A stretch of DNA of 64,000 nt, from NCBI GenBank assembly GCA_029366385.1, contig GCA_029366385.1_4540.1, one strand, 5' to 3'. Under the pieces are notes generated by a model. It saw only the letters and a program-made list of their open reading frames with translations. It was not told the origin of the DNA and made no database searches. Origin of the DNA: a phage. Numbering within the stretch: position 1 is the first letter of the stretch; the number at the start of each line of letters is the position of its first letter. A program made the position numbers and the translations under genes. Positions 378 to 3,857 of the stretch are shown in pieces.

Positions 378-920
378 TCACAAATATCGTCTTTGCGGTA
401 TTTTGTCTGGGAAAAGTATTTCGATCAGTTTATTATGATATTTGCCTAAAAGATTCTGCCCTTTCCAGGTAGCAGGGTTTAGCACCCCTGGTTCATACAT
501 CCCCATTCCAATTCCGTAAACCTTATCGTAGGGGCTTGCTTCAACAAACGTTTTGTATTGGTAAAGGTGTAAGTCTGCATACAAATCTGGATTCTGTACA
601 TATTTCAAGCATAAACCTCGCATAACAATACGCTCACGGTTCTCTTCCCATACATTGTTATCAAAATCCGACACTGCCCTACCCATACGTTTGTAATAAG
701 CTTGGATCTTCTCATCTTTCCGTATCAAACTATGAGTCAGAATAGCCTGTGCAGTGTTGTGATCATTAAAAAGCAAAGCTTTACGCCACATCATGTATTG
801 TTCGACACAATTAAATGTCTGATTGTAACCTGGTTCGGTTTCTGTAAAGGGTGCAATATACCAATTACTAAACACATCTTTATGTGAAAAGAAGAATACA
901 TATTCATCAGTTATTCGCAT
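378..920 (-). CDS. NADAR-domain protein (YbiA-like N-glycosidase / ADP-ribose-processing fold)
   Basis: 180 aa; motifs FFFSHKDVFSNWY..APF, CVEQYMMWRKALLF, W..NRERIVMRGL..KYVQNP, ASPYDKVYGIG align with E. coli YbiA-type NADAR domain by eye. Confidence 0.75.
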   Translation of the reverse strand: MRITDEYVFFFSHKDVFSNWYIAPFTETEPGYNQTFNCVEQYMMWRKALLFNDHNTAQAILTHSLIRKDEKIQAYYKRMGRAVSDFDNNVWEENRERIVMRGLCLKYVQNPDLYADLHLYQYKTFVEASPYDKVYGIGMGMYEPGVLNPATWKGQNLLGKYHNKLIEILFPDKIPQRRYL

Positions 921-1108: not shown

Positions 1109-1474
1109 TTAATCCATCCACCAGTAGCCATAAACTGCGTCTGCGTCGATGAGTTTGTGTTTGTTGTTCCGCATGTAGTCTAAGATAAGTAGACGTTTAT
1201 TGTATCTGGAGAGATTATGACCCTCTTTTCCGCCATAGTCAAAATATTTTGCAAGATCTTTACACTCAAACAAAATCAGTTCGGGAGTTTCTTCGCACTG
1301 GTCTGTCTGGTACACTTGACGAATGATCATGTATACATCGTCGTCTTCCGCTAAATGCTCTACTGGTCCACATCCAGCAGGAACAAATTCATAGTCCCAT
1401 CGGATCAGATGTTTCTCTACTGCTTCAAAGAAGTCCATTCTTTCGTTGCGCATAATTTGAACGTCAACTAACAT
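1109..1474 (-). CDS. Hypothetical protein
   Basis: 121-aa ORF; start overlaps stop of upstream gene (translational coupling). Confidence 0.5.
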   Translation of the reverse strand: MLVDVQIMRNERMDFFEAVEKHLIRWDYEFVPAGCGPVEHLAEDDDVYMIIRQVYQTDQCEETPELILFECKDLAKYFDYGGKEGHNLSRYNKRLLILDYMRNNKHKLIDADAVYGYWWMD

Positions 1475-2676
1475 GTTTCCTCCTGTAATGTTCCACCATA
1501 AAGTTTATAAATATTTTGTATTGATGCCATGCAAGATAACTCCACTGTCTCTGTGTAGCCATCTGGCATAGAATATTTGCTCACTGCTTCCGTGTGAAGG
1601 ACACGCTTACAACGCTTTTCTGCATCTTTGCATTGCTTCACAGTAGGGAAGTGCCACACTTGGCTCTGTTTCATAGTAAACACATTACGACTATTTTGTT
1701 CTTTGATACGGCGATTACTATTATTAGCAATACCAAACTTCAGTGCACAGATAATATCTTGCTCATCGTAAATATAATTAATGTAGGCTTGTTGTTGATT
1801 CATACCTGCACAACCAGGGCAACCACACCCCTTATTTAACCAATTGTTAGCACTACACACATGTTTCCCATGATCCTTGCAACCATATTCAAAATCCCCA
1901 AGTATAGAAGCTTTCCCGATCCACCCCAACCACACGTACCCTCTACGTTCTACGTCACTTTTTGCTCTAAATGTCATCTCTTCTTCAGAATATTTGTAAC
2001 TGGCAGAACAACGACAAGGGCGCATACCCTGTTTTAATGAACTACCTCTACCGATAAAATATCCCGTTCCTACCCCAGCTTTGGAAAACTCATCTATAGC
2101 ACAGATAGGGCAAAATACACTCCAAAGTATTTCGCTCCTCCCAGCTTTTTCCCCTGTATTAGTGAAGGTAGTGCCTTCGGGAAACACACCCGTACTCATG
2201 AAATCTTGTATGTGCTGATCGTCTGAAAGCTTATTGTGTTTACCTATATCCTCTAAACGACAAACTGGACAACCTTGTTTATTATTCTTAAAGTTGTCTA
2301 TGGTAGATGTGTTAAACTCGTGACCCCTATCACAACGTAAGATTACTCGTGTCTTTTTAGCTTTCAGCCATTCTCCGTAGATACCCAAGAAGCGCCAACC
2401 TCTTTTTAACGCTTCTTCTTCACACTCTTTCTCTTGGTCCTCTCTGCTCTTCGTTCTCTTCTCCCTTTTTGTTAATTCACCACAAGAAGGGCAAGACTTC
2501 CCACTTTTAAAGTTAGATATTTTACAAGTATCCCATACACCGTGCACAGGACATTCTATCAGGAGTTTAGTCTCACACCCTTTCCATTCTTTATGGCCTA
2601 AAATTTTATATCCTTTAGAGAGAGCTATGATCTCGCATTCTGCTTTATATTCTTCCCAACTTTTAGCTTTACTCAT
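1468..2676 (-). CDS. Cysteine-rich protein with three tandem zinc-ribbon-like repeats
   Basis: 402 aa; three copies of a roughly 55-aa module ending C-x2-HG-x5-7-I-x-NF-x3-K-x-GCP-x-C (ECPVHG..NFKSGKSCPSCG; RCDRGHEF..NFKNNKQGCPVC; CKDHGKHV..WLNKGCGCPGC). Confidence 0.6.
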   Translation of the reverse strand: MSKAKSWEEYKAECEIIALSKGYKILGHKEWKGCETKLLIECPVHGVWDTCKISNFKSGKSCPSCGELTKREKRTKSREDQEKECEEEALKRGWRFLGIYGEWLKAKKTRVILRCDRGHEFNTSTIDNFKNNKQGCPVCRLEDIGKHNKLSDDQHIQDFMSTGVFPEGTTFTNTGEKAGRSEILWSVFCPICAIDEFSKAGVGTGYFIGRGSSLKQGMRPCRCSASYKYSEEEMTFRAKSDVERRGYVWLGWIGKASILGDFEYGCKDHGKHVCSANNWLNKGCGCPGCAGMNQQQAYINYIYDEQDIICALKFGIANNSNRRIKEQNSRNVFTMKQSQVWHFPTVKQCKDAEKRCKRVLHTEAVSKYSMPDGYTETVELSCMASIQNIYKLYGGTLQEETC

Positions 2677-2694
2677 GATTTCATCCTATAAGAA

Positions 2695-2712
2695 ATGCCC
2701 CTTGCGGGGCAT
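2695..2712 (-). terminator. Putative terminator/attenuator hairpin
   Basis: Perfect 7-bp stem ATGCCCC / GGGGCAT with loop TTGC; on - strand followed by TTTCTTATAGG; sits between stop of 2718-3857 and RBS of 1468-2676. Confidence 0.45.
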
Positions 2713-2717
2713 CTTTA

Positions 2718-3857
2718 TTAGAACACGCTACCCAGTGTGGTGGAACGTTGTGTTACAGGTTCCAGCACCACTCGCAGAGTGTTTCCTGGTGTAGTGCTCA
2801 TAACCAGAATCTTACCACCTTCAATCAGATCACAAGTTAGACCATCAGCCGTTGCACATAGATCAATATGTGGATCACCATCTTCATCCAGGATAACATA
2901 ACTGTTGGTTTCCATTGCTTCCACTTCATCATCTTTCAAACTTTGTAGATAGATGTTCAGGGAACAAGCACCCGACAAAAACTTAGTAGGGGTGAAGTCG
3001 TGCCAGTTATTGATCCAATTCACCTTCAAGGTTTTGCCATTAGCTACGATAGAAGCCACATTCCATTTAGCATCGTTCCCTAAAGAAATACCCATCATTT
3101 CAAGACATTCTTTAAAAGTCATTTTTGGATAGAAATTCAATTCTTCTACAATGCCTTGAATAACATCGAAAGACAACTCTGTGCTAACATCCCATAAACG
3201 TTGGAAGTTATCTACGTGCTTTTTATTTACCAAGTTCTTATCCAAGTAATCTAACATAGTTTCACTAGACAGTTTATCGTAATTGAAACTGTAGTAGATA
3301 CGACTAGGACGGTTTACAAAATATTCCGAGATATAGCCACTATTTTTAGTAAGGATGTAAAGTTTATTTCCACTTCCTGTTCCATCCAACAAGGTCAACA
3401 GTGCTTCCTGATCTTCTTTCTTAGCGTACACTTTATCAAACTCGTCAAATAAAACAACAGCACGATCTGTAATTTTACTCATAAATTCTAAGAATCCAGC
3501 ATCTGTGTAAGGCTGTGTCACCAAAATGGTTGGAATACCTAAACCTTCTGTGGACATTAGGGACATGCTAATCAGTTTAGCTAACATCGTCTTACCACTG
3601 CCCTTTGTCCCTGTCAGTAACACCCCAGTATTTTTACCTTCTTTACTACGACGAGCAAATGTTTTAATAACATGTGCGGCGCGGTCTTTAGTTTCCCCAT
3701 AAAGAGTGTTCGGAAGAGAGAAACTTTCACCACGCACTAAAGAGTAGTTACCGTGCGGATCGCAGTTGACAACCCAAACTCCAGCAGGAAGTTTATTAGC
3801 TTCAACGCCATATTCCTTATTTACAACAGCTACATCTCCAAAAATAGTGTATTTCAT
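2718..3857 (-). CDS. AAA+ family ATPase
   Basis: 379 aa; Walker A GTKGSGKTMLAK, Walker B VVLFDEFDK. Confidence 0.65.
   Translation of the reverse strand: MKYTIFGDVAVVNKEYGVEANKLPAGVWVVNCDPHGNYSLVRGESFSLPNTLYGETKDRAAHVIKTFARRSKEGKNTGVLLTGTKGSGKTMLAKLISMSLMSTEGLGIPTILVTQPYTDAGFLEFMSKITDRAVVLFDEFDKVYAKKEDQEALLTLLDGTGSGNKLYILTKNSGYISEYFVNRPSRIYYSFNYDKLSSETMLDYLDKNLVNKKHVDNFQRLWDVSTELSFDVIQGIVEELNFYPKMTFKECLEMMGISLGNDAKWNVASIVANGKTLKVNWINNWHDFTPTKFLSGACSLNIYLQSLKDDEVEAMETNSYVILDEDGDPHIDLCATADGLTCDLIEGGKILVMSTTPGNTLRVVLEPVTQRSTTLGSVF

Follow-up and report, generated by a model that had tools for sequence, protein, structure and literature searches.

A probable homing-endonuclease-type gene with a predicted four-module zinc array and a GIY-YIG-type nuclease domain in a Phapecoctavirus

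What is the function of a 402-aa, cysteine-rich protein encoded beside an AAA+ ATPase gene in a phage of Escherichia coli? The question arises from a 64,000-nt contig (GCA_029366385.1_4540.1, assembly GCA_029366385.1; this whole stretch is called the window below), which is the DNA of a Phapecoctavirus, one of the E. coli myoviruses related to phAPEC8. An earlier note, made from the letters alone, had described the protein as three tandem zinc-ribbon-like repeats in which it recognised no standard named domain, possibly with a nucleic-acid-binding or host-takeover role alongside the ATPase. The analysis reported here points instead, with a probability that we put at roughly 70%, to a gene of the homing-endonuclease type, free-standing and belonging to the T5orf172 branch of the GIY-YIG nuclease superfamily; its product would combine a zinc array with a C-terminal nuclease. 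The observations that carry this reading are the domains that the protein contains, the fold of its nuclease part, the conservation of candidate catalytic and metal-binding residues, an insertion polymorphism and a mosaic pattern among related phages. The locus is organised as follows.

1468..2676, minus strand: complete endonuclease gene (ATG 2676-2674, TAG 1470-1468; ORF list)
2718-3857, same strand as the endonuclease gene: AAA+ ATPase gene (Pfam AAA, 8.7e-7; PHROG 2376 ATPase, 3.9e-111)
2695..2712, minus strand: GC-rich hairpin with a 7-bp stem (ATGCCCC/GGGGCAT) and the loop GCAA (sequence; terminator scan)
1472..1484, minus strand: ribosome-binding site (AGGAGGA, 1484-1478) and ATG (1474-1472) of the downstream gene (sequence; ORF list)

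The 402-aa reading frame at 1468-2676 is confirmed by the ORF list, and its product matches PHROG 681, 'endonuclease' (4.5e-75); the homologous genes in the RefSeq records of ESCO5, ukendt and anhysbys are likewise labelled 'endonuclease'. No paralog was found among all ORFs of the 64-kb window, and NCBIfam gave no useful match to the protein. The downstream gene encodes 121 aa, and its ribosome-binding site and start codon are located inside the 3' end of the endonuclease ORF, giving a 7-nt overlap. Within the protein, four predicted zinc modules of two types precede the nuclease domain.

2449..2676, minus strand: zinc module 1, type A, residues 1-76 (predicted ligands C42, H45, C62, C65)
2227..2448, minus strand: zinc module 2, type A, residues 77-150 (predicted ligands C115, H119, C136, C139)
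1990..2226, minus strand: zinc module 3, type B (CapR-core), residues 151-229 (C189-x2-C192 ... C221-x-C223)
1789..1989, minus strand: zinc module 4, type A, residues 230-296 (predicted ligands C266, H269, C286, C289)
1468..1788, minus strand: GIY-YIG/T5orf172-type nuclease domain, 106 aa, residues 297-402 plus the stop codon

The three repeats first seen by eye are significant. In local alignments of segments compared with 300 shuffles, unit 1 (residues 1-76) aligns with unit 2 (77-150) with a score of 102 (z = 17.2), while the third copy (230-296) reaches z = 5.7 against unit 2 and z = 3.9 against unit 1, and none of the shuffles attained any of the three scores. Consistently, a search with an HMM of the unit detects it exactly three times in the protein (9-66, 80-140 and 233-290), in copies that are in register with the units of homologs through three invariant Cys and a His located 3-4 residues past the first. 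The word tandem applies to copies 1 and 2, which are adjacent, but not to copies 2 and 3, which are parted by a 79-aa zinc module of the other type (151-229); it is this type-B module, with its pairs C189-x2-C192 and C221-x-C223, that explains the additional Cys pairs reported previously. The proposed motifs fared unevenly: G-[WY]-x-x-L-G is present in all three copies (GYKILG, GWRFLG and GYVWLG), C-x2-HG occurs in copies 1 (CPVHG) and 3 (CKDHG) whereas copy 2 has C-x3-H (CDRGH), and I-x-NF-x3-K-x-GCP-x-C is matched exactly by copy 2 only and nearly so by copy 1 (SCPSC), whereas copy 3 has a degenerate form of it. At the DNA level, repeats inside the gene are limited to short matches of 15-17 nt, indicating that there was no recent internal duplication.

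These units do correspond to named domains, namely Pfam CapR (PF21817) and the overlapping DUF723 (PF05265) and DUF4379 (PF14311), and with such a clear match to a well-characterised family the claim of novelty fails. The CapR model matches the whole protein in four stretches with 80.6 bits (E 9.6e-23), a result confirmed segment by segment; its gathering cut-off, 24.2 bits, is exceeded by the whole protein and by modules 1 and 3. Module 3 contains the best stretch (157-224; 6.4e-10 and 39.5 bits when scanned alone), followed by the module 1 segment (7e-8, 33.0 bits), which also matches DUF723; alone, module 2 matches DUF4379 (6.9e-4) without a CapR match, and module 4 matches CapR below the cut-off (1.1e-3, 19.6 bits). 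The CapR domain was defined by two conserved Cys pairs, CxxC then CxC, separated by 24-26 residues (Netter et al., 2021, PMC8096241); module 3 has both pairs in this order with a gap of 28 residues, two over the published range. Across 36 homologs, the predicted zinc ligands of module 2 (C115, C136 and C139 among them) and all four Cys of module 3 are invariant without exception, and the ligands of module 4 are at least 90% conserved.

The type-A units share the ligand pattern C-x2-3-H ... CPxC, the second pair being C-x2-C. In the predicted structure, the first ligand pair is found at a beta-turn and CPxC at the N-terminus of a helix, which fits the 'treble-clef-like' description of the earlier note; the units differ from a classical zinc ribbon, in which both ligand pairs are carried by beta-hairpin knuckles belonging to a three-stranded sheet. 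The AF2 model of the whole protein is confident throughout (mean pLDDT 90.4; 84-93 for module 1), and a single-unit model of module 2 has a pLDDT of 88. When type-A and type-B units are compared profile to profile with hhalign, the probability is 8.7% and only CPxC is aligned, out of register, whereas the Pfam CapR model matches both types in register. A Foldseek search of the PDB with the full-length model returned nothing at E <= 1e-3; its weak top matches, tandem dsRBD proteins (TARBP2, Loqs, R2D2), were taken to reflect repeated alpha-beta-beta-beta-alpha units and not homology, and sequence and profile matches in the PDB were a chance RING (E 0.6) and spurious designed repeat proteins. 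The units are predicted Cys/His metal-binding modules. A nucleic-acid-binding role, as the earlier note had suggested, is plausible by analogy, as they match Pfam CapR, a domain that binds DNA in the CapR protein of the PLE satellite.

The repeats do not make up the whole protein, since residues 297-402 form a separate domain, a nuclease that had been overlooked. This domain displays the three-stranded sheet and the beta-beta-alpha-beta-alpha-alpha order of the GIY-YIG fold, and Y298, N300, K313, G315, I316, R323, Q327, E353, D372, G373, E376 and T377 are invariant in it. Y298, K313-x-G315-I316, R323 and E376 are unchanged in 36 homologs, down to 26% identity, and Y298, R323 and E376 (in D-G-x-T-E) are also invariant in a set of 18 sequences reaching a 28%-identical member. 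These last three residues are candidates for the catalytic Tyr (strand 1), Arg (helix 1) and Glu and, judging from order and position, would be equivalent to Y6, R27 and E75 of I-TevI. In Pfam terms the assignment is marginal: the isolated domain scores 19.5 bits with T5orf172 (cut-off 20) and 20.8 bits with MUG113 (cut-off 22.3), both just short of curated membership. Among the 18 family members, T5orf172 is matched at E <= 0.01 by 7 (best 7.9e-5) and MUG113 by 5, the only other Pfam family being DUF1802, in one member. As far as the account given by Barth et al. (2023, citing their reference 13) goes, Glu-dependent endonuclease activity is known for only one T5orf172 protein.

The presence of a nuclease domain and of domains that already have names also bears on the suggestion that a novel zinc-ribbon repeat protein acts with the neighbouring ATPase in nucleic-acid handling or host takeover. 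The neighbour is indeed an AAA+ ATPase gene, as had been noted; the two genes share a strand with only 41 nt between them, and homologs adjoin the ATPase gene in records of the sister genus Justusliebigvirus as well. However, a terminator-like hairpin separates the genes: it closely follows the stop codon of the ATPase gene and precedes the endonuclease start by 18 nt, and in the record of vB_EcoM_ASO2A the stretch matching the 3' end of the ATPase gene bears a 'terminator' annotation. Phages phiWec188 and phiWec190 moreover lack the endonuclease gene, and their ATPase gene directly precedes the downstream gene; homologs of the protein occur in addition in many phages that are unrelated (Vibrio ICP1, Klebsiella, Aeromonas and jumbo phages), the matches there being annotated as endonuclease or hypothetical. 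A partnership with the ATPase is thus largely refuted, and we regard it as barely credible.

The same two phages reveal how the gene is inserted.

1484..2686, no strand: stretch of 1203 nt absent from phiWec188 and phiWec190 (blastn junctions)

The blastn junctions show window positions 1483 and 2687 directly joined in the empty site, which is identical in phiWec190, so that the hairpin, itself identical in phiWec188, is followed at once by the ribosome-binding site of the downstream gene. The inserted 1203 nt comprise the ORF and its own ribosome-binding site and nothing else, i.e., the gene alone is present or absent between conserved genes, as is typical of homing genes. The empty site is seen in 2 of 72 related records and the site is filled in about 70, which means that the element is close to fixation in the genus and that few naive targets are left. 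EP57, considered as a second clean empty site, was rejected, because its deletion removes the intergenic region along with the gene and joins the ATPase gene to the downstream ORF; many ORFs of this 130-kb record are fragmented.

Identity along the locus provides a second signature of mobility. In the one pair analysed in detail, the window and ECO340P2, only 2 of the 1209 nt of the gene differ (99.83% identity), as against identities of 98.2% for the ATPase gene and 96.7% for the downstream ORF; identity remains at 95.8-98.3% over about 1.3 kb beyond the ATPase gene and then drops to 79% about 2.5 kb away on this side, while on the downstream side it drops to 72-91% about 340 nt past the gene. 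Such a gene-centred peak with decay into the flanks is what co-conversion would leave. In ukendt, the gene is 99.9% identical and the 6-kb region 96.4%.

A third signature is the mosaic structure of the gene itself. Across phages, flanks that are 97-99% identical and nuclease domains that are 93-98% identical accompany swapped arrays with only 47-64% nucleotide identity; in phAPEC8, for instance, the array shows 47-62% identity, whereas the nuclease domain and both flanks show 97-98%. Other alleles differ by gain or loss of whole units, with the module orders A-B-A, A-A-B-A and A-A-A-B-A present at the locus; in the A-A-A-B-A allele of nieznany, the nuclease domain has diverged too. MRostami-2023b was discarded as an example of N-terminal domain swap, the array region being a run of N in that record.

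Near-fixation is also how a domesticated gene would look, and a domesticated or neofunctionalised relative of homing endonucleases, kept because it benefits the phage rather than for homing, is the alternative that the filled site in about 70 of 72 records and the Justusliebigvirus neighbourhood bring to mind. Possible roles, by analogy, would be to cut competing phages or satellites (marker exclusion, as with Odn against PLE) or to bind DNA sequence-specifically and repress, as in PLE CapR or I-TevI autorepression, and relatives with such roles are documented: CapR, Odn, and the RepA_N-T5orf172 proteins of Inny, Muut and Mt1B1_P17. In agreement with this view, eight records have an intact ORF with 98-99.9% identity, and homing and domestication look the same from sequence alone (Barth et al., 2023). 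Nevertheless, a mobile element is what the presence/absence polymorphism points to, as do the gene-centred identity peak and the swapping of arrays between near-identical genomes; the conservation of the catalytic residues argues against a pure DNA-binding repressor, and no PADLOC defence model matches the protein. The gene is split by a frameshift in at least one record and may thus be dispensable, although a sequencing error is possible, given that this record has a split ATPase gene as well. Overall, we consider domestication unlikely, while granting it a real chance.

Near-fixation could also be the end point of a homing endonuclease that no longer cuts and is decaying as an inactive remnant, which would be in line with the split version in KKP 3954, the deletion in EP57 and the sub-threshold Pfam scores of the nuclease domain. 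Against this stand the full-length ORF with all predicted zinc ligands intact, the preservation of Y298, R323 and E376 noted above, the confident AF2 model, and the two nucleotide differences from ECO340P2 despite diverged flanks, and decay therefore appears very improbable.

On the preferred reading, the protein is a 'beads on a string' enzyme made of four independently folded zinc modules and a nuclease. The three type-A units and the CapR-core unit would constitute a DNA-recognition array, and the C-terminal 106 residues the catalytic GIY-YIG-type domain. During mixed infection, the array would bind a long asymmetric site at or near the junction of the ATPase and downstream genes in a relative devoid of the allele, and the nuclease domain would then cut close by; recombinational repair templated by the carrier genome would place the gene, together with some neighbouring DNA, in the genome that was cut. 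By swapping, losing or gaining zinc modules, the same nuclease would acquire new targets. No target site was located, as the only genomes without the gene are 74-87% identical in the flanks and hence too diverged to pick out immunity substitutions.

A more far-reaching version, which we find doubtful, is that the array is an exchangeable targeting cassette in which each unit of about 65 aa reads a defined DNA sub-site, i.e., a natural modular code reshuffled by phages; if true, this code might be deciphered and used for programmable nucleases. Modular recognition has already been proposed in general terms by Barth et al. (2023), whose view that the homing endonucleases of phages evolve through the shuffling of DNA-binding modules finds a natural example in this locus. 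With an empty site, several array variants and a near-constant nuclease in E. coli phages that are easily grown and crossed, it makes a convenient system for testing T5orf172 homing and for asking how zinc modules read DNA. The main gain is a correct annotation: a homing endonuclease of T5orf172/GIY-YIG type, with four zinc fingers of the CapR type.

How does the protein compare with known systems? At the level of the fingers, a profile of the type-A unit matches 30,053 cluster representatives in a library of 1.84 billion proteins, with up to 15 units per protein. Module 2 (DUF4379) and module 1 (DUF723) connect the array to the treble-clef arrays of PF14311 and PF05265: of CapR, DUF723 and DUF4379, each of the six long-array proteins checked matches two or more, and four of the proteins match the full set. 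Unlike the window protein, none of these six, which include arrays of 8-14 units, has a nuclease domain detectable by Pfam. On the nuclease side, the structure-specific GIY-YIG (URI) nucleases SLX1 and At-HIGLE resemble it at the level of the fold, with only 12-16% sequence identity; these are repair enzymes of eukaryotes that carry a RING/PHD partner domain and lack CapR fingers.

Closer in lifestyle are the Seg genes of phage T4, which are free-standing between conserved genes and spread by co-conversion. Seg proteins and I-TevI share the modular architecture, in which the GIY-YIG catalytic domain is linked to a distinct DNA-binding region, but their nuclease is N-terminal and that of the window protein C-terminal, and they bind DNA through NUMOD/helix-turn-helix modules in place of a predicted zinc-finger array. 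No sequence similarity to I-TevI is detectable in PDB sequence searches.

Exchangeable DNA-binding domains joined to a T5orf172-type nuclease are also found in Odn of ICP1 and in the RepA_N-T5orf172 proteins of Inny, Muut and Mt1B1_P17 (Barth et al., 2021, 2023), some of which occur in the same phage subfamily as the window. These proteins carry a satellite-derived RepA_N domain and are proposed anti-satellite weapons, whereas a zinc-finger array is present here. Mt1B1_P17, itself a Phapecoctavirus, appears in Barth et al. (2023) only in a genome table and, in the main text, only through its RepA_N-T5orf172 protein; phAPEC8, ESCO5, ukendt, anhysbys and the name 'Phapecoctavirus' are absent from the supplementary text of that study.

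CapR of the Vibrio cholerae satellite PLE, the only protein for which zinc-dependent, sequence-specific DNA binding by the CapR domain was shown, depends on four cysteines for this binding (Netter et al., 2021, PMC8096241). Module 3, the best Pfam CapR match, has the same CxxC ... CxC arrangement, with the slightly longer spacing given above; PLE CapR is a 15.5-kDa stand-alone repressor without nuclease, while module 3 is one of four modules fused to one.

The closest parallel is provided by the T5orf172 proteins of ICP1 with CapR-homology domains, Gp165, Gp174, Gp121, Gp53 and Gp130, which are putative homing endonucleases (Netter et al., 2021, PMC8096241; Barth, Dunham and Seed, 2023) and for which homing is without experimental demonstration (Barth et al., 2023). 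Gp165 is collinear with the 402-aa protein, with 28% identity over 266 aa (E 1e-23). In both cases, an N-terminal array of CapR/DUF723/DUF4379 fingers is followed by a C-terminal T5orf172/GIY-YIG-type domain, the genes are free-standing between phage genes, and alleles differ by whole repeat units. The differences are that the host and lineage are here E. coli and Stephanstirmvirinae, that the nuclease domain falls just under the Pfam T5orf172 cut-off, and that ICP1 carries several such genes whereas the closest relatives of the window gene have a single copy per genome. Since T5orf172 homing endonucleases with repeated CapR/DUF723/DUF4379 fingers have been described (Netter et al., 2021; Barth et al., 2023), the protein is best seen neither as a novel zinc-ribbon protein nor as an ATPase partner, but as a further, ordinary member of this class of selfish phage genes.

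The window is part of a Phapecoctavirus genome (phAPEC8-like E. coli myoviruses, subfamily Stephanstirmvirinae), and over its first 6 kb it shares 96-98% identity with ESCO5, anhysbys and ukendt. The sign of the GC skew flips at ~6 kb (about 6300) and at ~41-42 kb (about 41400), where the coding strand switches too, so that the window falls into three transcription blocks, on the minus, plus and minus strand in turn; the minus-strand ORFs at 41-61 kb are large, up to 1017 aa, and may be structural genes. The gene studied here has the following surroundings:

378-920, minus strand: NADAR-domain gene, downstream, 180 aa (Pfam 7.8e-36; PHROG 1017)
1109-1474: 121-aa gene of unknown function, downstream, overlapping the endonuclease ORF by 7 nt
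1468-2676, minus strand: endonuclease ORF from the ORF list, 402 aa
2718-3857, minus strand: ATPase gene, upstream of the endonuclease ORF (Pfam AAA 8.7e-7; PHROG 2376 3.9e-111)

The 379-aa AAA+ neighbour has weak and generic P-loop matches in Pfam and a weak PADLOC match (mad8, 4.4e-5); its gene is kept across Stephanstirmvirinae and is labelled 'FtsH-like protease' or 'ATPase or Zn metalloprotease' in other records. The NADAR gene is labelled 'GTP cyclohydrolase II', 'YbiA-like N-glycosidase' or 'hypothetical' in related phages. Since NADAR proteins are known to reverse DNA ADP-ribosylation, a counter-defence role for the 180-aa protein is conceivable by analogy.

The 402-aa protein had been described in the earlier note as three zinc-ribbon-like repeats, and the repeats themselves are borne out. 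In segment-versus-segment local alignments with 300 shuffles per comparison, z was 17.2 for residues 1-76 versus 77-150, 5.7 for 77-150 versus 230-296 and 3.9 for 1-76 versus 230-296, the observed score being equalled by 0 of 300 shuffles in each of the three comparisons. An HMM of the ~60-aa unit, referred to as type A, likewise finds exactly three copies (9-66, 80-140 and 233-290). The units of homologs line up with these in register; three of the Cys never vary, and a His follows the first of the three by 3-4 residues. The motif string initially proposed was a composite: G-[WY]-x-x-L-G is present in all three copies, and C-x2-HG in copies 1 and 3, copy 2 having C-x3-H instead. The description also missed or blurred both a 79-aa module of another type (type B, residues 151-229, with C189-x2-C192 and C221-x-C223), which separates copies 2 and 3, and the non-repeat region 297-402. 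AlphaFold2 modelling of the full protein from a 36-sequence alignment gave a mean pLDDT of 90.4 and a pTM of 0.51, as would be expected for well-folded beads whose mutual orientation is undefined.

These modules belong to named families, contrary to the initial view that no standard domain could be recognized. With the full-length protein as query, Pfam gives the CapR homology domain (PF21817) in four stretches (80.6 bits, E 9.6e-23). Taken alone, module 1 (residues 1-76) matches CapR (7e-8) and also DUF723, module 2 (77-150) DUF4379, a 'probable treble clef zinc finger' (6.9e-4), module 3 (the type-B module) CapR (6.4e-10), and module 4 (230-296) CapR (1.1e-3). Types A and B are alike in predicted topology and the Pfam CapR model matches both in register, while direct comparison of their profiles by hhalign gave a probability of 8.7% and recovered no collinear alignment. 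Module 3 may be either a type-A unit that has diverged or a module in its own right. Searched against 1.84 billion proteins, the type-A profile retrieved 30,053 cluster representatives, of which 12,409 reached E <= 1e-10; the number of units in one protein was as high as 15. Of six representatives checked, four matched CapR, DUF723 and DUF4379 alike and the other two matched two of these three; the type-A unit is therefore a member of a large named zinc-finger group. In the metagenome library, four proteins of 1000-1100 aa (P0078, P0080, P0088 and P0145) consist of 14-15 consecutive type-A units, and no Pfam nuclease domain was detected in the two that were scanned, P0078 and P0080.

The main Pfam matches of the C-terminal domain are to MUG113 (20.8 bits, cut-off 22.3) and T5orf172 (19.5 bits, cut-off 20), both of the GIY-YIG superfamily and both just below the curated cut-offs. 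Among 18 family members, T5orf172 is matched by seven and MUG113 by five, the sole other Pfam family being DUF1802, in one. Twelve residues (Y298, N300, K313, G315, I316, R323, Q327, E353, D372, G373, E376 and T377) are invariant in 36 homologs down to 26% identity, and, judging by their order, Y-I ... K-[FL]-G-I ... R ... D-G-x-[TS]-E probably corresponds to the GIY, YIG, Arg and Glu elements. The whole protein falls into PHROG family 681 'endonuclease' (4.5e-75). In addition, modules 1-2 (residues 1-150) match positions 119-247 of the 607-position profile of PHROG 559 'HNH endonuclease' (7.4e-12), which indicates that the finger modules are common to GIY-YIG-type and HNH-type phage endonucleases. 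The protein is very probably an endonuclease combining CapR fingers with a GIY-YIG-type domain; that it might be a decayed remnant is improbable, as all key residues are conserved.

Several observations indicate that the gene is an element that was inserted and can be exchanged. An empty site is found in phiWec188 and, identically, in phiWec190, where window positions 1483 and 2687 are adjacent; there the ribosome-binding site (RBS) of the 121-aa gene comes immediately after the stop codon of the ATPase gene and a GC-rich hairpin. The insert is 1203 nt long and comprises the endonuclease ORF and its own RBS. Its junctions (2684-2687 / 1478-1484) carry the similar RBS-ATG strings AGGATGAAATCATG and AGGAGGAAACATG, whose likeness leaves the boundary ambiguous by a few bases; this short repeat might have provided the microhomology through which the segment was inserted or lost. 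These two phages also contradict the suggestion that the protein is a partner of the adjacent AAA+ ATPase or acts in host takeover, an idea that we regard as very unlikely. The 41-nt spacer between the ATPase and endonuclease genes has no promoter-like site, which, together with the hairpin directly upstream, suggests that the gene may be expressed by read-through from the ATPase gene. The junction is empty in only 2 of 72 matching records. The record of vB_EcoM_EP57 (OR544956.1, 130.7 kb; 1836-3341) lacks both the endonuclease gene and the hairpin, and its ATPase gene runs on in frame into the 121-aa gene to give a 501-aa CDS; as many ORFs nearby are fragmented, either a real deletion or a poor assembly may be the cause.

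Several alleles occupy this locus. The order A-A-B-A is shared by the window, ECO340P2 and phAPEC8, the array of the latter being 47-62% identical in nucleotides versus 98% for the nuclease domain and 97% for both flanks. In tuntematon the order is A-B-A (nuclease 93%, flanks 98-99%), and in nieznany A-A-A-B-A, with a diverged nuclease domain and flanks at 98-99%; in family members at other places, the number of type-A units ranges from one to five. The similarity of other alleles by blastn breaks off approximately 333, 485-552 and 758-780 nt from the 3' end, i.e., at about residues 291, 218-240 and 142-150, near module borders. Identity to ECO340P2 peaks in the endonuclease gene, at 99.83% (2 differences in 1209 nt), versus 98.2% for the ATPase gene and 96.7% for the downstream ORF; identity is 95.8-98.3% through ~1.3 kb past the ATPase gene, drops to 79% ~2.5 kb off on that side, and is 72-91% from ~340 nt past the endonuclease gene on the downstream side. 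In KKP 3954 (OR067838.1, 2601-3592) the gene is broken into one CDS for A-B and another for A-nuclease, and the ATPase gene is likewise broken up, reflecting either a frameshift-inactivated allele or sequencing errors. In MRostami-2023b (OQ031492.1, 'UNVERIFIED') the array is a run of N between sequenced nuclease part and flanks, the repeat region having apparently failed to assemble.

We favour, with a probability of about 0.7, a homing endonuclease. In a co-infecting genome without this allele, the array would bind a long site and the GIY-YIG-type domain would cut; recombinational repair would then copy the gene and adjacent DNA into that genome. Exchange of modules would retarget the enzyme. 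That the protein is still homing is less certain than its identity as an endonuclease. That the element is close to fixation fits the main rival equally well, namely a domesticated relative that acts in competition between phages or between phage and satellite, or that regulates by binding DNA. We consider this rival possible but unlikely. The locus merits a second look, as in easily handled coliphages it offers an empty site alongside several variants of the array, joined to a nuclease domain that hardly changes.

By tblastn, the family is present in 399 phage records, 142 of them from Vibrio phages, many of which are ICP1 isolates where the match is annotated 'putative homing endonuclease'. 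The region is also matched at the DNA level by 'Campylobacter phage' B15, C3 and A150 (host C. jejuni), 'Acinetobacter phage vB_AbaM_ABPW7' and 'Pseudomonas phage PsgM04F' (protein identity 57.7% to B15 and 44.8% to C3), records that look like mislabelled or contaminant Stephanstirmvirinae genomes. As for novelty, the repeats observed in the earlier note stand and their interpretation does so in part, while the claim to something new does not: the domain already has a name and is widespread, the architecture has been described before, and in RefSeq the gene carries the annotation 'endonuclease' in near-identical phages. CapR itself is the repressor of the capsid operon in PLE, a satellite of Vibrio cholerae; it binds DNA, loses that binding when its four conserved cysteines are mutated, and was recognized as a DNA-binding domain domesticated from ICP1 homing endonucleases (Netter et al., 2021; PMC8096241). 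The present protein and Gp165 of ICP1, a putative homing endonuclease, are collinear (28% identity over 266 aa, E 1e-23). Nearly all T5orf172 homing endonuclease genes (HEGs) bear CapR, DUF723 or DUF4379 zinc fingers, often several as 'beads on a string', and through recombination between the repeats units are lost or duplicated and domains exchanged; the same study states that homing of these genes has yet to be verified by experiment (Barth, Dunham and Seed, 2023; PMC10448857). The architecture of the 402-aa protein is exactly that of the T5orf172 HEGs described in this study.
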